The translations under genes were made by a program, and so were the position numbers. Source: Patescibacteria group bacterium (GTDB lineage: Bacteria; Patescibacteriota; Patescibacteriia; UBA2591; UBA6264). Taken from it: 54,652 nt of DNA. Positions within the stretch are counted from its first letter, which is position 1, and every line of letters starts with the position of its first letter. The notes beneath the pieces were generated by a model. The model did not search any database. It was not told where the DNA came from and saw only the letters and a program-made list of their open reading frames with translations. The stretch spans positions 1-54,652 of the forward strand of contig JAIPGN010000005.1 of NCBI GenBank assembly GCA_021735685.1. Reading direction: 5' to 3'. This document shows, in pieces, positions 518 to 26,780 of this stretch.

Positions 518-1091
518 AATTGTATTGACTTTGCACCTTAGTAATTCCCTCTTGTTGAGCAAGGTTAAGGGCTTGGCTAGTTAAATCTAAAGACTGCTGA
601 ACAGTCTTTTTTTCTTTTCTTTTAAATTTTTTCAAAACAAAATTTTTAGCATCAATCAAATTTTTTTTCGAATCTCTAATGCCTAATCGAAAGCGAATAA
701 AATTTTTACTATTCAATTGATCAATAATTGACTGAACCCCTTTATGTCCTCCAGCTGTACTATTAAGAGAAATTTTAATTCTTCCCAAGTCTAAATCTAA
801 ATCATCGTGAACGACCCATAGATTAGGTAATTGGGTGCTTGGACAATTAGGTATTTGGGATTTATTTTTAATTAATTTATTTACACTAATCCCGGATTCG
901 TTCATAAAGACATTCGGCTTTACTAAAAGAAAATCTCCTTTTTGAGAAAGATAAGCTAAAGACAATTTATCTAACTTGAATTTAGGAAAATAAAAATCAG
1001 CGGCAAATTTTTCTAAAGCCATTTGTCCTATATTATGTCTGGTTTTTTCATATTCTTTGCCTGGGTTCCCCAGACCAACGACGAAAATCAT
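513..1091 (-). CDS. pth: Peptidyl-tRNA hydrolase
   Basis: GLGNPG..Y..TRHNIG, KP..FMNESG, VHDDLDL, GGHKG motifs. Start moved to MIFVVG (1091). Confidence 0.95.
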   Translation of the reverse strand: MIFVVGLGNPGKEYEKTRHNIGQMALEKFAADFYFPKFKLDKLSLAYLSQKGDFLLVKPNVFMNESGISVNKLIKNKSQIPNCPSTQLPNLWVVHDDLDLDLGRIKISLNSTAGGHKGVQSIIDQLNSKNFIRFRLGIRDSKKNLIDAKNFVLKKFKRKEKKTVQQSLDLTSQALNLAQQEGITKVQSQYNS

Positions 1092-1172
1092 AAGACATAA
1101 AAAGATTAGAAAGTAAGACTTGAACAATTAGGATTTTATCTTAATCAGCAATCCTTAATCCTTCCATTTATT

Positions 1173-2495
1173 CTATGTTCTTTTAATAATCTTAACTTTA
1201 AGAGGAGCGCCACTAAAATCCCATCTATTTCTTAATGCTTTTTTAATAATATTGATTTGAGCATCATTAATAGATTTTCTTTTGAAAATGATATTAGGAA
1301 CAAAAAGAGTGAATTGAGGAGGGTTGACTCCAGTCTGATAAATACGAACCCGGTCCCAAACTTTAACAGAAAAACCCTTTCTCTTGACTAATAGCCGTAA
1401 AAAGTTATTTAACTTCTCTTCTTCAATTCGGCGAGAACAATTTTGCCAAACCCGAACGATCAATTTAAAAATATCTTGAACATTTTTGTTATTTTTAGCG
1501 GAAATAAAAGCAGCTGGAGCCCAAGATCCCAATTCTAAGACAAAATCATTTCTTTTGAATTTTTGTTGAGAAATTAAATCACATTTATTTAAAACAAAAA
1601 TTAACCCCTTTTCTTTGCTGATAATTAAATCGGTCAGAGCTTTATCTTGATGGCTCAAAGATGAGGCAACGTCCAAAACCATCAAAACTACGTCCGCTTG
1701 AGCAACAGAAACTAAAGAGCGGTGTACCCCTTCTTTTTCAATGCTTAATTTAATGCGAGCTCGTCGACGAATGCCAGCCGTATCAATTAAAAGAAACTGA
1801 TGATTATCTTTAAGGACCAGACTGTCTTGGGGCCCTCGCGTAGTGTGGGCCAAGGGAGAAACAATGGCCTTTTCCTCACCAAGCAAAGCATTGAGTAAAG
1901 TAGATTTACCAACATTAGGTTTGCCTAAAATTGCCACTTTAATTAAAGGAACCTCTCTTTCTTCTAAAGAGTCTTCTTCTAATTTCTTTACTTTCTTCAT
2001 TTCGTTAACCACCTCATCTAAAAGATCTCCTACTCCGCTACCATTTAAAGCTGAGACGGAAAAAGATTGATCAAAGCCCATTTTTAACCAATGTTGGCTC
2101 TCCCCCCACTTTCTTTTTCGCGGATTGTCAGCTTTATTTAAAACTACAAAACACTTTTTTCGTGATTGCTTAATTAAACGAGAAATCTCTTGCTCTAAGT
2201 GAGAAATAGGTACTTCAGGAGGACGAATTTCTAAAATAAAAAAAAGAAAATCCGCCTCTTTGATGGCGATTTTGATGTGCCTCAGAACCTCTTCCTTAAA
2301 GTCCTCTGTCTTTTCATCAATGCCTCCCGTGTCAATAAAAGTAATATCCTCACCTCGCCAAGAGCAAAGCCCATAATTACGATCTCGAGTGGTCCCCGGC
2401 AAAACAGAGGTAATGGCCTTAGATTCAGAAATCAAACGATTAAATAAAGTTGATTTTCCGACATTAGTCTGACCAATTAAAGCAATTTTAAACAT
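1173..2495 (-). CDS. der: Ribosome biogenesis GTPase Der (EngA)
   Basis: Two tandem G domains (GQTNVGKST..DTGG; GKPNVGKST..DTAGIRRR) plus a KH-like C-terminus. Confidence 0.95.
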   Translation of the reverse strand: MFKIALIGQTNVGKSTLFNRLISESKAITSVLPGTTRDRNYGLCSWRGEDITFIDTGGIDEKTEDFKEEVLRHIKIAIKEADFLFFILEIRPPEVPISHLEQEISRLIKQSRKKCFVVLNKADNPRKRKWGESQHWLKMGFDQSFSVSALNGSGVGDLLDEVVNEMKKVKKLEEDSLEEREVPLIKVAILGKPNVGKSTLLNALLGEEKAIVSPLAHTTRGPQDSLVLKDNHQFLLIDTAGIRRRARIKLSIEKEGVHRSLVSVAQADVVLMVLDVASSLSHQDKALTDLIISKEKGLIFVLNKCDLISQQKFKRNDFVLELGSWAPAAFISAKNNKNVQDIFKLIVRVWQNCSRRIEEEKLNNFLRLLVKRKGFSVKVWDRVRIYQTGVNPPQFTLFVPNIIFKRKSINDAQINIIKKALRNRWDFSGAPLKVKIIKRT

Positions 2496-3728: not shown

Positions 3729-4840
3729 ACTTTTGTTTGCTTTGAAATGGCAACCAAGATTCCAAAAGAGGCCAAAAAAATAACTAAACTAGAACTACCA
3801 TAACTCATAAAAGGAAGAGGGACGCCAGTCACGGGAACCAAATTAAGCATGCCTCCCATATTAATAAAGGCTTGGAGAATAAACCAAAAACCAATTCCCG
3901 CAGCTAAAAGCTGACCAAATTTATCAGAAGAAAGCGAAGCTATTTTGAAAATCCGATAAAAAACAAAAAGATAAAGAAGTAATAAAAGAAAAGTCATTAA
4001 GAAGCCCAATTCCTCAGCGGTTACCGCAAAAATAGAATCACCAATTACTTCAGGAAGACGATAAAATTTCTGCACTGATCGACCCAATCCCGCTCCAAAA
4101 AAACCGCCAGCACTAACCGCTCGCAAAGCTTGGTCCAAATGATACCTGCTCCCCTCACTGACCTCGCTCGAACCAAAAAAAACTAAAATTCTCTCGGTGC
4201 GATAATTAACATAGCGCGTAGAAACTAAGAATAAAGTCCCTAAAAGCAGAAATAAAATTAATAAATGTTTCCAAGGAGTCCCTGCTAAAAAATAAACCAC
4301 CAAAGAAGACAAAATAATAATTAACAAAGTGCTTAAATCTCTTTGAGGTAAAATTAAAGCAGAAATCAGAGCCAAAAAAAACAAAAAAGGCAAAAAAGTC
4401 TGTCCCCAGCTTCGTAAATTAATTTGTTTTTTGGAAAGCCAAGCTGAAAGAAAAAACAAAAAGGCTAGTTTAACTATCTCTGAAGGCTGAAAATTAAAAC
4501 CAAAAATATTTAACCAACGCTGCGACCCTCCAATTTTAAAACCAAATTGAGGCAAAAGCACTAAAACTAAAAGTAAAATAGCGCCTCCCAAAAAAAATAA
4601 AGTCCATTTCCTTAAACGACGATAATCAATACGAGTAAGAAGAAAAAAAAGAAACAAACCCGGCAACAAACCATAGAGCAATTGATGTTTTAAATAAAAA
4701 TAACAATCATTTAATTTTTGGCATCCAATAAAATAACTGGCCGAAGTGAGCATAAAAAGGCCAACTATTAACAAAAAAAATAAACCAAAAATTAAAAAAT
4801 AATCCGGAGAATGACGAGAAGATTCTTTTTTAGTAATCAT
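3722..4840 (-). CDS. ftsW: SEDS family peptidoglycan polymerase FtsW/RodA
   Basis: Multi-TM; GSQRW, FQPSEIVK, PE..GDSIF, TGVPLPFMSYGSSS. Confidence 0.9.
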   Translation of the reverse strand: MITKKESSRHSPDYFLIFGLFFLLIVGLFMLTSASYFIGCQKLNDCYFYLKHQLLYGLLPGLFLFFLLTRIDYRRLRKWTLFFLGGAILLLVLVLLPQFGFKIGGSQRWLNIFGFNFQPSEIVKLAFLFFLSAWLSKKQINLRSWGQTFLPFLFFLALISALILPQRDLSTLLIIILSSLVVYFLAGTPWKHLLILFLLLGTLFLVSTRYVNYRTERILVFFGSSEVSEGSRYHLDQALRAVSAGGFFGAGLGRSVQKFYRLPEVIGDSIFAVTAEELGFLMTFLLLLLYLFVFYRIFKIASLSSDKFGQLLAAGIGFWFILQAFINMGGMLNLVPVTGVPLPFMSYGSSSLVIFLASFGILVAISKQTKVC

Positions 4841-5211
4841 AATTGATAAAAAACAATTAGAAGGAGGTGTAAAATTAAAATTAACTGAACTAAAAAGCTC
4901 GCTCCTAATAAAACAAAAGACAAACGGAATTCTTTGTTTTCGTAGAAACGAGAAGATAAAAAAGAATTAACTAAAAAAATTAATAACCCCAAAAGAGCTA
5001 AAGCTAAAAATCTAACCCAGGGGCCAAAGACAGAAACTCCAGAAAAAAGATCGTAACGTAAAAGAATAAGTCCTTCTTCTTTGGAAAAAACAAAAAATAT
5101 ATAAAAAAATAAAAAAAGATTTAGAGCAAGAGAACCTAAAAAAAGAAAACGGTGGCGAGAGTCTTTCCAGAAATTTACTAAAGGCCGAGAATGAGAAAAT
5201 TCTTTAATCAT
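4837..5211 (-). CDS. Hypothetical membrane protein (3 TM)
   Basis: Hydrophobic ORF; stop overlaps the ftsW start by 4 nt. Confidence 0.65.
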   Translation of the reverse strand: MIKEFSHSRPLVNFWKDSRHRFLFLGSLALNLFLFFYIFFVFSKEEGLILLRYDLFSGVSVFGPWVRFLALALLGLLIFLVNSFLSSRFYENKEFRLSFVLLGASFLVQLILILHLLLIVFYQL

Positions 5212-5233
5212 GAGATAAAAATTCTTAAAAAAT

Positions 5234-5262
5234 TTGACAGAAATTAAAAAAAGTTTTAAAAT
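5234..5262 (+). promoter_or_regulatory. sigma70-type promoter of rpmA
   Basis: TTGACA, 17 nt, TAAAAT. Confidence 0.6.
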
Positions 5263-5324
5263 AAAATTGAATTTAATACGCTGAGCAACAACAAAAATCT
5301 GTTTTGCTATTTAACTTACTAAAT

Positions 5325-5624
5325 ATGTCACACAAAAAAGCGGGCGGATCAACTTCTTTGGGACGCGATTCTCAAGGACAAAGACTAGGGATCAAAGCTT
5401 ACGGAGGAGAAAAAGTAAAAGCCGGGGCCATTCTCGTTAGACAAAGAGGAACTAAGTTTCACCCAGGAGAAGGAGTGCGGCGCGGCAAAGATGACACCCT
5501 TTATGCCTTAAAAGAAGGAAAGGTTACTTTTACTAAAAAGAAAACCATCCGCTTTGACGGTCATCTTCGTTTAAGAAAATTTATTAATATCAACGAACCG
5601 TCAACAAGTAAAAAGAAGAAATAA
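5325..5624 (+). CDS. rpmA: 50S ribosomal protein L27
   Basis: [39 protein letters not shown]. Start set at ATG 5325. Confidence 0.97.
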
Positions 5625-5646
5625 AAAAAGAAGAAATAATTTCTAC

Positions 5647-5679
5647 AAAAACCACGCTTTCTTTTGGCGCGGTTTTTTT
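5647..5679. terminator. Bidirectional intrinsic terminator
   Basis: AAAAACCACGC..GCGCGGTTTTTTT hairpin between convergent rpmA and ctpA. Confidence 0.65.
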
Positions 5680-6880
5680 AATTGCTTAATATTTCAACAG
5701 CCTTTTTCAGCTGCGGATCTCTTTCTTCTAGATAATCCTCTTTGGTCATTTCTACTTCTACTTCAGGAACAATTCCTTCTTCATTAAAAGATCTACCTAA
5801 AGGAGTATACCAATTAGCAATTGTTAGTTTTAAGGCAGACCCATCTGACAAATTTCTTAATTCTTGTACCGAGCCCTTGCCAAAGGTTTGTTGCCCTAAA
5901 ATAGTTGCTATCTCATAATCTTGCAACGCTCCAGCTAAAATCTCAGAAGCCGATGCTGACCCTTGATTAACCAAAACTATTGTAGGCAAATTCTCAAAAT
6001 AACCCGGCCCCGAAGATTTATATTCTCGTTCCCTACTTTCGGCATCTCGAGCCACCACCACCACGTCCTTGGCAAGCCAATAACCGGCAATATCTACAGC
6101 CGTATCTAAATAACCTCCGGGATTGTTACGTAAATCCAAAATTAATCCTTGGGGATTAGCTCCTAAAACCACTTGTGCGATGTTTTGAAAATCACCCCAA
6201 GTATCATCCGAAAAATGACTAATTTTAATATAAGCAATTTTATCTTCTGGTCCCATTAATTCCCAAGAAACAGATTCAACATCAATAGTATCCCGTGTAA
6301 TCGCTATGTCTAGAATTTCTTCTTCTGGTTCTCGAAAAATAGTTAAAATCACCTCCGTTCCTCTTTCTCCCCGAATTAACTCTGCGGCCTCATCCAAGCT
6401 AATTCCTAAAGTATTTTCTCCGTCAATAGCGTAAATTTTATCACCAGAACGAAGTCCAGCTCTAAAAGCCGGCGTATTATCTAAAGGAGCAATGACAGTA
6501 AGTCTTTCATCTTTAATGCCAATCTCAATACCCACGCCCTCGAAACTGCCAGAAACATCCTCTAAAAATCTTTTAGCCAAATCAGGTTTCAAAAAAGAAG
6601 AATAATCATCTCCCAATCCTTCAACTAAACCTTCCAAAGATCCATAAAAAAGATCTTCTTTAACAATGGGCTGCTGGACATAATCTTTTTCAACAATTTG
6701 CCAGACCTGATCAAATAAAGAAAAATCAAATTCCTCGCTAAAATCTTTTTGATCAAATCCCTCCTTAATCATTAACTCTGAAGAAACAACATTATTCTTC
6801 AGAGAAAACCCAAGGGCAAAAGAAAAAAAGGAAAAAGCGATAATTAAAATTATGTTTTTTCGAGAAGCGTTATTTTTCAT
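5678..6880 (-). CDS. ctpA: S41 family C-terminal processing protease
   Basis: N-terminal TM, PDZ domain (GVGIEI), LDLRNNPGG, SASASEILAGALQD, TFGKGSVQ. Confidence 0.92.
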   Translation of the reverse strand: MKNNASRKNIILIIAFSFFSFALGFSLKNNVVSSELMIKEGFDQKDFSEEFDFSLFDQVWQIVEKDYVQQPIVKEDLFYGSLEGLVEGLGDDYSSFLKPDLAKRFLEDVSGSFEGVGIEIGIKDERLTVIAPLDNTPAFRAGLRSGDKIYAIDGENTLGISLDEAAELIRGERGTEVILTIFREPEEEILDIAITRDTIDVESVSWELMGPEDKIAYIKISHFSDDTWGDFQNIAQVVLGANPQGLILDLRNNPGGYLDTAVDIAGYWLAKDVVVVARDAESREREYKSSGPGYFENLPTIVLVNQGSASASEILAGALQDYEIATILGQQTFGKGSVQELRNLSDGSALKLTIANWYTPLGRSFNEEGIVPEVEVEMTKEDYLEERDPQLKKAVEILSN

Positions 6881-7892: not shown

Positions 7893-7980
7893 AATTAAAA
7901 TAAATTTAAAAATAAATCAAATTACTTTCATTATAACAAAAAAACCCATTCTCACAAGTAAAAGAATTTGTCCATCTATT

Positions 7981-8009
7981 TTGACATCAAGGCAAAAAAG
8001 ATCTATGAT
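7981..8009 (+). promoter_or_regulatory. sigma70-type promoter upstream of the tRNA region
   Basis: TTGACA, 17 nt, TATGAT. Confidence 0.55.
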
Positions 8010-8071
8010 AATTAGGAAAGCATTTCCAAATAACAAGAGTGCATAACTCAAAGGCAATCTCTGCTGGCAGG

Positions 8072-8090
8072 CCTATCTGCCGATAGTCAG
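8072..8090. repeat. Degenerate copy of the CCTGCCTGCCGG(T/C)AGGCAGG palindrome
   Basis: CCTATCTGCCGATAGTCAG matches 15 of 19 aligned positions of the consensus; preceded by a partial CTGCTGGCAGG. Confidence 0.45.
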
Positions 8091-8151
8091 AAAATACCAC
8101 CCTTATGACAATAATCTTTTTTTTATTACAATTTCAAGTGAGTGTAAATGT

Positions 8152-8220
8152 GGGCGCATAGCTCAGGAGTACCTGCCTGCCGGTAGGCAGGCCTGCCTGC
8201 CGGTAGGCAGGGAGCGCCAT
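8152..8220 (+). pseudogene. tRNA 5'-half pseudogene interrupted in the D-loop
   Basis: GGGCGCATAGCTCAGGAGTA^GAGCGCCATC with a 40-nt insert; no T-arm or 3' acceptor strand follows. Confidence 0.7.
8172..8211. repeat. Tandem pair of 20-bp REP-like palindromes
   Basis: CCTGCCTGCCGGTAGGCAGG x2, exact. Confidence 0.9.
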
Positions 8221-8228
8221 CTTAAAAA

Positions 8229-8300
8229 GGGCATGTAGCTCAGAGGTAGAGCACTTGACTTATAATCAAGCGGTCCTGGGTTCGATCCCCAGCATGCCCA
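8229..8300 (+). tRNA. tRNA-Ile (anticodon UAU)
   Basis: GGGCATG/CATGCCC acceptor stem, CTTGA-CT TAT AA-TCAAG anticodon arm, GGTTCGA T-loop, discriminator A, CCA not encoded. Confidence 0.88.
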
Positions 8301-8380
8301 CTCCCTTTCAACAAAAATCACAATGTGGAGGTCAAACCCCCACAACATCCAAGTAAAGAAGAAAAAAATAACACAATAAT

Positions 8381-8623
8381 ATGACCAGAGTTTTGGTAGG
8401 AATTTTAATTACAGCTATTGGTTTTTGGGTAGTCTGGAAATCAGAAAAAGTTTTTCGTTTCTTTGGAAGAAGCGCTTGGGCTGAAAAATATCTTCGCTAC
8501 GAAGGTGGCAGTCATCTATTTTACAAATTAATAGGCATAGCAATTATTTTTCTCGGACTTTTTGTAATTAGCAATATCTGGGCAGATATTATGACAGGAA
8601 TTGCCGGGATTTTTGTACAATAA
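8381..8623 (+). CDS. Hypothetical small membrane protein (2 TM)
   Basis: 80-aa ORF with two hydrophobic helices; stop codon abuts tRNA-Ala. Confidence 0.7.
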   Translation: MTRVLVGILITAIGFWVVWKSEKVFRFFGRSAWAEKYLRYEGGSHLFYKLIGIAIIFLGLFVISNIWADIMTGIAGIFVQ

Positions 8624-25922: not shown

Positions 25923-25982
25923 AATTGCCCCCCCCTTAAAAGGAAAAACCTAAGATAGAATTTACAAGAATCGTCCTCTAGT

Positions 25983-26006
25983 AAAAAGGGCCGACAATGT
26001 CGGCCC
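25983..26006 (-). terminator. Intrinsic terminator
   Basis: Minus strand GGGCCGACA-T-TGTCGGCCC followed by a T run, just after the 26020 ORF stop. Confidence 0.7.
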
Positions 26007-26019
26007 GGGAAAGTTTGTT

Positions 26020-26256
26020 CTAAAACATGTCTTTATGTTTTAGAACCGGCTCCAAATGAGTAGGAGCCATGCGCAGCCGACCGTTGTTGGCCAGCCTTTT
26101 GATCCCTTCTCGTATTTTTACAAGAGGATAATCCTCTTCTAATTGTACGACAAGGTGTAACCCACACCCTTTGATTTCAACTTCCCGACCGGAGTCGGAA
26201 ACTTCAACTTCAATGGGATTAGTTACAACCTGAAAAGTGTGTTTCGGATCTTTCAT
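26020..26256 (-). CDS. Orphan hypothetical protein
   Basis: AAGGAGG SD before MKDPKH, TTGACA upstream, terminator downstream. Confidence 0.65.
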   Translation of the reverse strand: MKDPKHTFQVVTNPIEVEVSDSGREVEIKGCGLHLVVQLEEDYPLVKIREGIKRLANNGRLRMAPTHLEPVLKHKDMF

Positions 26257-26327
26257 TTTTCCTCCTTTGCTTGTCCCTAAGTTTAACAAAACAAAGTCTT
26301 TTTGTCAAGATTCTTTCTTTTTTTTAT

Positions 26328-26340
26328 GGGGACAGTCCCC
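26328..26340. repeat. GGGGACAGTCCCC short palindrome
   Basis: 6-bp arms; related to the GGGGTCTGGCCCC family. Confidence 0.5.
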
Positions 26341-26546
26341 CCAAAGTAAGGCCACCAAACCCGCTTCTTAAGCAAGAAGTAGAAGCAAAAATTCAATTTG
26401 GCGAGAAAATGACCTTTTTCGCTTGAACCCAAGAAATTCAACTCAGAAAATAGAACTGAAGAAAATATAGAAGCTCAATCTCTAGAGTACAGCCCCAAAA
26501 CACAGCTGAGTGCTGGAAAATAAAACAAAAAAACAACTAATCTTAC

Positions 26547-26694
26547 TTTGGGATCTGGCCCCAACTAAAAACGTTAAAAAACTAACGGTTTTGAAAAATT
26601 GCCATGGAAACAAGCACAGAGAGCTGGTTTCCGAGAAGCAGTTTTTGGGGTCTGGCCCCAAAAAAAGTGTTAAAAAATTGACGCTTTTAGGAAA
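26547..26694 (+). repeat. Dispersed intergenic repeat, about 1.5 tandem units
   Basis: Two GGG(G/A)TCTGGCCCC ends and two (C/T)GTTAAAAAA-x-T-x-ACG heads, period about 100 nt. Confidence 0.8.
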
Positions 26695-26780
26695 ATAAAA
26701 CCAATTATTTTCTAAGAATTTACTCCTGAAGATTTTTACTTTGAAATTTACTTTTAGGGGCTCACCCTCCAAGGGTTTAA

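Follow-up and report, generated by a model that had tools for sequence, protein, structure and literature searches.

Palindromes in displaced tRNA halves of a patescibacterial contig

The window analyzed here comprises positions 1 to 54,652 (forward strand) of contig JAIPGN010000005.1 of a Patescibacteria group bacterium (assembly GCA_021735685.1), and our subject is a 20-bp palindrome, P, that sits inside truncated tRNA sequence at two of its loci. P reads CCTGCCTGCCGG(C/T)AGGCAGG and occurs as a T variant, CCTGCCTGCCGGTAGGCAGG, and a C variant, CCTGCCTGCCGGCAGGCAGG; the expected number of copies of the 20-mer in the window is 0.00 (100 dinucleotide-preserving shuffles). The host is a bacterium with about 35% G+C that encodes RuvB, Mur ligases, RNase Y, FemAB, and a short AlaRS, and the closest named relatives of the window proteins are Patescibacteria.

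At locus 1 (plus strand), a tRNA-type 5′ end, GGGCGCATAGCTCAGGAGTA (8152-8171), runs from the acceptor strand through the D-stem into the D-loop up to GTA, with 17 identical positions in a 19/19-nt alignment to GGGCGTATAGCTCAGGGGT, the tRNA-Ile of relatives. It is followed by an exact tandem pair of the T variant (8172-8191 and 8192-8211); a single copy is predicted to fold as a single-stranded DNA hairpin of −7.0 kcal/mol, and the pair can form an 18-bp hairpin of −25 kcal/mol. Behind the pair, tRNA sequence resumes with GAGCGCC (8212-8218) and continues to 8228 (GAGCGCCATCTTA, then AAAA), from the 3′ strand of the D-stem to the anticodon loop, with homology to GAGCGCCACTCTTATA of relatives. 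The intact, working tRNA-Ile gene (TAT, anticodon UAU; GGGCATG type; ARAGORN; Rfam, 77 bits) occupies 8229-8301. An initial sequence-only reading had described a tRNA 5′ end split by two tandem palindromes without target-site duplication, and this arrangement is confirmed and was reproduced by independent assemblies; no target duplication was found in the flanks of the pair. The broken piece is indeed truncated tRNA sequence, but it is longer than the roughly 30 nt first proposed: homology reaches ~8224 (GAGCGCCA-TCTTA), i.e., into the anticodon loop, which gives a 5′ half of ~33 to 37 nt. This half, together with its two P copies termed A′ (8152-8228), is a copy of none of the eight tRNAs of the window; it matches the tRNA-Ile of relatives.

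The sequence at locus 1 is real, and its junctions are no product of chimeric assembly. In a lake-water study, Logan contigs of two runs cover 7950-8450 (17.7-kb contig) and 7979-8432 (454-nt contig) with 0 differences, and another study contributes contigs for 8060-8209 and 8184-8449, which take in both junctions. The check, which rests on independently assembled contigs and not on raw reads, thus disposes of the concern that the junctions had been joined in error.

Upstream of A′ lies a third and oldest copy, A″ (8037-8107), in a decayed state. It consists of a tRNA-Ile-type 5′ piece, GAGTGCATAACTCAAAGGCAA (8037-8057; local alignment to GGGCGCATAGCTCA, with 6 of 1,000 shuffles scoring equally), two degenerate tandem palindromes, TCTCTGCTGGCAGG and CCTATCTGCCGATAGTCAG (8058-8090; alignment to P-P scores 36, reached by 0 of 1,000 shuffles), and a remainder, AAAATACCACCCTTATG (8091-8107), that ends in the anticodon loop and aligns to GAGCGCCACTCTTATA of L169 and L170. 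The two decayed palindromes sit in the D-loop of A″, at the point where A′ has its two perfect copies. The order in the window is A″, a 44-nt spacer L (8108-8151), A′, and the intact gene; spacer L (ACAATAATCTTTTTTTTATTACAATTTCAAGTGAGTGTAAATGT), which separates successive 5′ halves, is kept in relatives, where it aligns to GCGATAACTTCTTCTTTATTACAATTTCAAGTGGGCGTAAATAT of L168 to L173. Downstream of the gene, a stretch considered as a decayed 3′ half, B′ (AATGTGGAGGTCAAACCCCCACAACATCCA, 8323-8352, plus strand), aligns only weakly to AAAGTGGATGTCGCAGGTTCAAATCCTGCTACGCCCA; 37 of 500 shuffles score equally, and the assignment is not significant.

The same place in six metagenome contigs (L168 to L173; RuvB 80 to 84% identical) is occupied by a nested array of the form (A-L)n – intact tRNA-Ile – (R-B)m, in which A comprises tRNA positions 1 to 37 and stops in the anticodon loop, L is the conserved spacer of 44 nt, R is a second spacer (~79 nt), and B runs from position 34/38 to the tRNA end. 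The two gene types have swapped roles: in L168 the outermost halves are of the GGGCATG type and the inner gene is of the GGGCGTA type, and in the window it is the reverse. These arrays contain empty sites. The outer half of L169 carries one P (GGGGTCA^GAGC), the next and otherwise identical repeat has none, and halves without P are found in the five other relatives (L168 and L170 to L173). Comparison of filled and empty sites revealed no duplication at the filled-site junctions of the tRNA-Ile arrays. P is an insertion without target duplication, as expected of the non-autonomous palindrome family that had been postulated.

The nested array lies upstream of ruvB. Every break falls in the anticodon loop and shows a TATA overlap of 4 nt. 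A tRNA gene and its short flanks are in this way seated inside the anticodon loop of a homologue, an arrangement that the model proposed below does not account for. In L168 a gene for a 474-aa Schlafen/AlbA_2 plus HATPase_c_4 protein (721-2145, minus strand) adjoins the nest. It is partly present in L170 and L173 and absent from the window, L169, L171, and L172.

Locus 2 lies on the minus strand, where GCCAACGTAGAGCTCAGTGGTA (22467-22446) is followed by P as a perfect C-variant palindrome, CCTGCCTGCCGGCAGGCAGG (22445-22426), and by GAGCAACTCCATGGTAAGG (22425-22407). Alignment identifies the split sequence as a displaced tRNA-Thr(GGU) half, a copy of positions 1 to ~40 of the adjacent intact gene (22371-22297; ARAGORN, Rfam) plus ~14 nt of its upstream flank; the 5′ piece has an extra AG. 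Half and gene are separated by a 35-nt spacer (22406-22372), the final ~14 nt of which repeat the native upstream flank. P is joined at GGTA^GAGC here as at locus 1, so that the shared GTA^GAGC junction of the sequence-only reading is found in both sequences. The closest relative, L183 (TIM 91% identical), has a clean tRNA-Thr and lacks the whole block, whereas the more distant L188 (TIM 81% identical) has the same fragment, a homologous spacer, and a T-variant P at the identical site. The tRNA-Thr block thus shows presence and absence at one site between close relatives, and no target duplication was seen here either.

The fragments copy 5′ parts of tRNAs and occur without P in relatives; they are therefore redundant by-products of events in the 5′ portion of tRNA genes and not genes broken by P. 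Because the halves are redundant and an intact cognate gene stands 0 to 35 nt downstream of each P-bearing half of the window, P breaks no working gene, and the earlier proposal that the palindrome inactivates tRNA genes had to be abandoned. In the window genome, which is of the Patescibacteria type, P survives only in already redundant tRNA sequence.

An identical 20-mer in about ten phyla

P folds as an uninterrupted 8-bp hairpin and is a single symmetric 20-mer, not an element with distinct left and right ends bearing subterminal hairpins. When positions 12 to 14 were left free in a search of viral contigs, GCA was found 39 times, GTA 14 times, and no other triplet more than twice, so P comprises two genuine subfamilies, distinguished by their centers, GGCAGG (C variant, the commoner) and GGTAGG (T variant). 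An exact-match scan with one genome per species found the 20-mer in at least 120 species genomes from about 10 phyla, cultured isolates included. Among the matches listed, ~33 are Patescibacteria and ~40 are Bacteroidota, the latter with cultured Winogradskyella, Flagellimonas, Olivibacter, Longitalea, and Flavivirga. Further carriers are Omnitrophota, Planctomycetota, uncultured Gammaproteobacteria, Bdellovibrionales, other "delta" bins, Nitrospirota, Chloroflexi, and Ignavibacteria, among others, and exact copies are present in 47 viral-contig stretches of 33 to 70% G+C. A literature search for the 12-mers of P found no occurrence in a bacterial context among the papers covered.

Preferences in the immediate flanks are weak: the T variant has G or A at −1 and G or T at +1, the C variant has A at −1 and T at +1 (40% each), and the flank profile contains no fixed target tetra- or pentanucleotide 5′ of P. 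Some copies are nested in the center of another P (L020, L026) or lie in tandem; others are embedded in short tandem repeats or in a repetitive extragenic palindromic (REP) element. Nesting, tandem copies, and presence/absence demonstrate that P is mobile on its own. About 6% of the copies lie in tRNA-derived sequence, which itself makes up ~0.3% of the DNA examined; tRNA D-arms as a strongly over-used landing place of P are thus supported.

P often lies within imperfect tandem repeats of 6 to 9 nt (e.g., L071, L080, L122, L015, and L115), sometimes with inverse repeats opposite. It also occurs in full-length tRNAs. A duplicate tRNA-Phe carries it at GGTA^GAGC (1047-1141 in L234 to L236), which ARAGORN calls as a 95-nt "tRNA-???" in L234, and a tRNA-Met carries it in the variable loop (L151, 2239-2330) and is still called as a 92-nt tRNA-Met.

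Insertion into loops of tRNA-derived DNA

The junctions of P in D-loops are not constant. We found GGTA^GAGC, GGTAGA^GC, GGATA^GAAT, CAATG^GATAG, GGCG^GAAC, GGCGGA^ATTGG, and GGCGGAA^TTGG, and the last three, together with GAATTG^GCAG, come from similar tRNA-Leu genes in different cassettes of the kind described below, which argues for repeated independent, loop-directed hits and not for one inherited insertion. Since the insertion point shifts within the D-loop, targeting follows the loop and not the sequence GTAGAGC. The idea that P targets this conserved motif, taken from the two loci of the window, is also contradicted by the copies elsewhere, ~90% of which have unrelated flanks. By our count, ~23 of the 27 hairpin insertions in tRNA-derived sequence fall in loops of the cloverleaf. 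Furthermore, all T-variant copies in tRNA fragments show GGTAGG on the tRNA sense strand, and the sense-strand hairpin of this variant keeps a G·T pair (−7.0 versus −6.1 kcal/mol).

Similar sites are also occupied by palindromes unrelated to P (L054, L063, L117, L168, L183), such as a GC-rich palindrome of 32/33 nt at GGTTA^GAGC in L054 and L063, 15-mers in L063 and L117, and palindromic inserts in the D-arm and T-loop of the dead halves of L168. When viral contigs were scanned for any insert of 16 to 44 nt at TAGCTCAGTTGGTA^GAGC, a GC-rich palindrome was found only in L162, where it is P; the remaining matches were ordinary variation or truncated copies. Three giant-virus bins from IMG/VR (L210, L212, L219) have a 20- to 21-nt AT-rich insert, cagtttaattactgcaacaaa, at this point of tRNA-like sequences; it shares the D-loop junction with P and is not a GC-rich palindrome.

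Association with small GIY-YIG nuclease cassettes

All-against-all clustering of 2661 open reading frames (ORFs) around P yielded housekeeping families and one small GIY-YIG family (PF01541). No transposase family recurs among them, and a neighboring transposase was rejected as the mover of P, as was an inverted-repeat-bounded 1.4-kb segment in viral contig L147, which has no transposase-like ORF. The GIY-YIG genes stand in a constant arrangement, in which a tRNA 5′ fragment of 30 to 58 nt, often with P, is followed by the GIY-YIG ORF and the intact cognate tRNA. In L162, L093, L052, L025, L117, and L111 the ORF lies between a P-bearing fragment and the intact tRNA, and the same architecture is seen in L203, L220, L223, L233, L234, and L238. 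The nucleases comprise 77 to 88 aa and have more than 7000 relatives in Patescibacteria, Omnitrophota, and Bacteroidota; UPF0213 proteins and SLX1 are the nearest solved structures. The stop codon abuts or overlaps the first bases of the intact tRNA, which means that transcription of the ORF has to start at the tRNA promoter and pass through the fragment.

In nine cassette families sampled irrespective of P, seven contained P-family hairpins: exact P was present in L220 and L238, L233 had two exact copies and one variant, L234 had an exact copy in the full-length duplicate tRNA-Phe, and variants were found in L223, L203, and L202. L201 and L204 had none. A literature search found no work on GIY-YIG cassettes with tRNA 5′ duplication and no described role for these "GIY-YIG nuclease family proteins."

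The viral locus L162 (IMG/VR; recR upstream) has three mobile layers at one tRNA (456-816 and 826-1462). A 5′ fragment with P is followed by the small GIY-YIG gene, and the working tRNA is itself interrupted in the anticodon loop by an apparent group I intron (…GGTAAAGGTATAGTCCGAC…) encoding an HNH endonuclease.

A proposed trans-mobilized hairpin in redundant tRNA copies

Taken together, P is an insertion without target duplication that resides in redundant tRNA halves, is spread across phyla, recurs with GIY-YIG cassettes, and varies in its position within loops. We propose that it is a miniature hairpin of 20 bp which is mobilized in trans, by an enzyme for which we name candidates below, and which persists in redundant tRNA copies; we give this reading a probability of about 60%. 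In our model, insertion into the 5′ part of a tRNA unit, or duplication at that part, would produce the order old 5′ half, spacer, intact tRNA, and repeated events would have built up the nested tRNA-Ile array. The spacer is occupied in many other genomes by a live gene for the ~80-aa GIY-YIG nuclease; the loci of the window would be ORF-less versions, and their spacers may be decayed cassettes. P would subsequently settle in loops of this dead copy, most often in the D-loop and at times in the anticodon, variable, or T-loop. It would arrive as a hairpin that the enzyme, acting in trans, may join into loops exposed in folded, single-stranded DNA of the tRNA gene (sense strand). Such a path would presumably involve a single-stranded intermediate. 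P hits in the working tRNA copy may be purged by selection. The likeliest candidate for the enzyme would be the linked structure-specific GIY-YIG nuclease of the UPF0213/SLX1 branch, with a REP-associated tyrosine transposase (RAYT) as the second choice.

Several observations weigh against this proposal. A phmmer search of the 54-kb window found no GIY-YIG ORF, a search of the same 54 kb for Y1 ORFs was likewise negative, and the window spacers X and L gave borderline and inconsistent alignments with GIY-YIG ORF starts (z from −1.5 to 3.8). About 90% of the P copies have neither a tRNA nor a GIY-YIG gene within 4 kb. When the "empty" flanks of 176 P sites were folded, 20% of the junctions fell in hairpin loops, versus 16% of 1638 control positions (p = 0.17); general hairpin-loop targeting was therefore rejected, and loop targeting is shown only for tRNA-derived sequence. 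The orientation bias of the T variant derives from only ~5 independent events. The link to the cassettes could be indirect, in that cassettes make dead halves and P tolerates or prefers those, and a cassette that duplicates 5′ parts does not account for the 3′ halves (R-B) of the tRNA-Ile nest.

A bolder version, possible though clearly less likely than not, is that P and the ~80-aa UPF0213/SLX1-type nuclease form an undescribed, pan-bacterial selfish system inside tRNA transcription units. The nuclease would cut folded single-stranded tRNA-gene DNA or hairpins, and P would be its mobile cis partner. As the cassette duplicates the tRNA 5′ half, the host would keep a working gene, and as a tRNA would be the sole homology needed, the system could cross phylum boundaries. 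If so, a GIY-YIG enzyme would act as a hairpin "transposase."

Alternative explanations

The sequence-only reading had placed P among elements of the REP/REPIN type that are moved by a RAYT, an HUH (Y1) enzyme, with D-arms hit as single-stranded DNA hairpins. P is indeed short, GC-rich, palindromic, in tandem, and free of target duplication, and the core of the T variant, CC-GGTA-GG, is similar to REPs of 13 nt with a GTAG loop (GAGCCGTAGGCTC, GTCCCGTAGGGAC) located before Chitinophagaceae RAYT genes. RAYT-like ORFs are found at three Bacteroidota P loci, somewhat above chance. However, the same 20-mer is present in about 10 phyla, whereas REPs are lineage specific, the window has no Y1 ORF, one is within reach in only 3 to 4 of 167 P loci, and no target tetranucleotide is conserved. 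The sole adjacent case, L047, where P lies 25 nt before a RAYT gene (PF01797), speaks against the link: P is inserted there into the RAYT's own REP (TCCCATAGG^P^GAC), and the ten orthologous RAYT loci have as their native element a 13-nt GTAG-loop hairpin (GTCCCGTAGGGAC or GAGCCGTAGGCTC) and in no case P (0/10). The GTAG feature itself is confined to the T variant (GGTAGG), and the commoner C variant lacks it (GGCAGG; 14 T to 39 C in viral contigs). In the 54-kb window and at the 167 P loci, P thus has no cognate RAYT that it flanks, and it lacks the lineage specificity by which REPs are defined. The argument that the junction matches the C^T cleavage reported for E. coli TnpA-REP was one of resemblance and gained no support in this analysis. 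Altogether, movement of P by a RAYT appears improbable. Slightly more weight, though still not much, can be given to the view that P is a working part of the GIY-YIG/tRNA cassette, be it a binding or cleavage site of the nuclease, an operator, or a splitter of the duplicated tRNA that would block repeat recombination deleting the nuclease gene and prevent the leader from folding like a tRNA. P would then cross phyla with the cassette, with the conserved tRNA as homology. The presence of P-family hairpins in seven of the nine independently sampled cassettes would fit such a role, as would a roughly central location in the repeated segment, the lack of room for a promoter of the nuclease gene, which forces transcription through the fragment, the suitability of a perfect 20-bp palindrome for a dimeric protein, and the overlap between taxa with the nuclease family and taxa with P. 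On the other hand, the position of P differs among cassettes, so it was acquired repeatedly and not inherited as one unit, the same places hold unrelated palindromes (L054, L063, L117, L168, L183), most copies are distant from any cassette, and those of the window have no nuclease gene to serve. We thus consider a function within the cassette rather unlikely.

Two further explanations can be given very little credence. The palindromes might be small intron-like sequences of the non-canonical archaeal kind that are removed from the tRNA transcript, for their positions match known archaeal intron sites (D-loop at ~20/21, 37/38, variable loop, and T-loop at ~56/57) and P is present in the full-length tRNA-Phe of L234 and tRNA-Met of L151. 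But the host is bacterial, as judged from its RuvB, Mur ligases, RNase Y, and FemAB, P is by inspection a continuous helix without bulge-helix-bulge, and its carriers in the window are truncated halves from which no tRNA can be made; excision as an intron is highly implausible. An assembly or library artifact, finally, could be suspected because chimeric reads can yield palindromes and most carriers are metagenome bins. Against it stand the junctions recovered in independent runs and studies, decayed and orthologous copies in relatives with 10 to 20% protein divergence, and P in cultured isolates sequenced by different laboratories, and we see practically no chance of it.

Comparison with known systems

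The initial reading named the right general class for P, non-autonomous palindromes that insert without target duplication. With REP/REPIN elements and their RAYT (TnpA-REP), P shares short, GC-rich, non-coding palindromes in tandem, insertion without target duplication, and the GTAG center of the T variant, but differs in that its 20 bp are identical in about 10 phyla and viral contigs, in not flanking RAYT genes, and in a main variant without GTAG. PATEs, which are derived from IS200/IS605, and other bacterial miniature inverted-repeat transposable elements (MITEs) are likewise non-autonomous and hairpin based, insert without target duplication, and possibly share a strand bias with P; they measure 100 to 400 bp and have two different ends and a fixed 4- to 5-nt target, whereas P is a symmetric 20-mer with a weak flank preference.

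The Seg proteins of phage T4 are free-standing GIY-YIG homing endonucleases, and SegB lies within the T4 tRNA cluster. The cassettes resemble them in having a GIY-YIG gene wedged against tRNA genes and in their presence and absence between relatives. In contrast, the predicted cassette nuclease has ~80 aa and no DNA-binding domain, is nearest to UPF0213 and SLX1, and is accompanied by a duplicated tRNA 5′ half and a palindrome. Mobile GC-rich palindromes are also represented by the GC clusters of yeast mitochondria, the double-hairpin elements of Allomyces, and the palindromic elements of Rickettsia, all of them lineage restricted. Like P, these are hairpins of high G+C content that have spread through AT-rich genomes, where they can land within genes for structured RNAs; hosts and sizes differ, and we know of no such family with a connection to tRNA halves or GIY-YIG cassettes.

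Element insertion is known to leave a partial copy of a tRNA next to the intact gene (PMC9897764), and in Caldiarchaeum a 5′ fragment of tRNA-Thr(GGU) accompanies a recombinase element (PMC3293823). The halves described here are similar insertion by-products next to an intact gene. They differ in the lack of an integrase, in spacers of 0 to 80 nt or a single 80-aa gene, in the nesting of the tRNA-Ile array on both sides, and in the palindromes in the loops. No recombinase was found between or beside the repeats at the window and compared loci, as an integrase island would have.

The wider association that joins hairpins in loops with duplicated tRNA halves and minimal GIY-YIG cassettes is apparently undescribed. 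If P is mobilized in trans, it would be among the smallest mobile DNAs known. Its identity in sequence from Patescibacteria to Bacteroidota, Omnitrophota, Planctomycetota, and phage-like contigs is unusual and implies either frequent inter-phylum transfer or an enzyme whose specificity is strongly conserved. The tie between P and the nuclease suggests a class of selfish, tRNA-resident cassettes that has gone unstudied, and the nuclease family comprises thousands of annotated proteins. There are also practical consequences: halves and hairpin-bearing duplicates mislead tRNA annotation, as in the "tRNA-???" of L234, and fragment metagenome assemblies, as seen in contigs that end at P.

Further observations

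Arrays of different 13- to 16-nt hairpins (GTGGCGTAGCCAC, CGGACTTAAGTCCG, CCGGAATAAATTCCGG, GAGCCGTAGGCTC) are found ~330 nt upstream of Chitinophagaceae RAYT genes (L190 to L199) and are partly tandemly repeated.

Within the window, other GC-rich hairpins (25988, 28356) were considered and look like ordinary terminators. The region 25923-26780 is an unusually long stretch without an ORF of ≥100 aa. It contains a small minus-strand ORF, matches no Rfam family at gathering score, and has the motif GGGRTCTGGCCCCAA in two similar versions, with AAAAA(C/G)TGTTAAAAAA-like sequence behind each.

Finally, the closest relative at locus 2, L183, has further units of its own. On the 3′ side of its tRNA-Tyr (4258-4480) are two identical tandem units, each composed of a 43-nt spacer and a 28-nt tRNA-Tyr 3′ fragment, and inserted in the T-loop of each fragment are two hairpins of 20 nt that differ from one another and have stems of 8 bp and loops of 4 nt (GCCCGGTCATACGACCGGGC, GGGGGGTCGCATGACCCCCC); the window lacks these units. 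Between tRNA-Tyr and alaS, L183 has a gene for a radical-SAM/SPASM enzyme (4517-6016) that is not present at that position in the window. Beside it is a gene for a 52-aa cysteine-rich peptide (…CCDSDGCDCGDSCVSGCDGDDGCNCNNSTCED), and the two resemble a small peptide-maturation pair.

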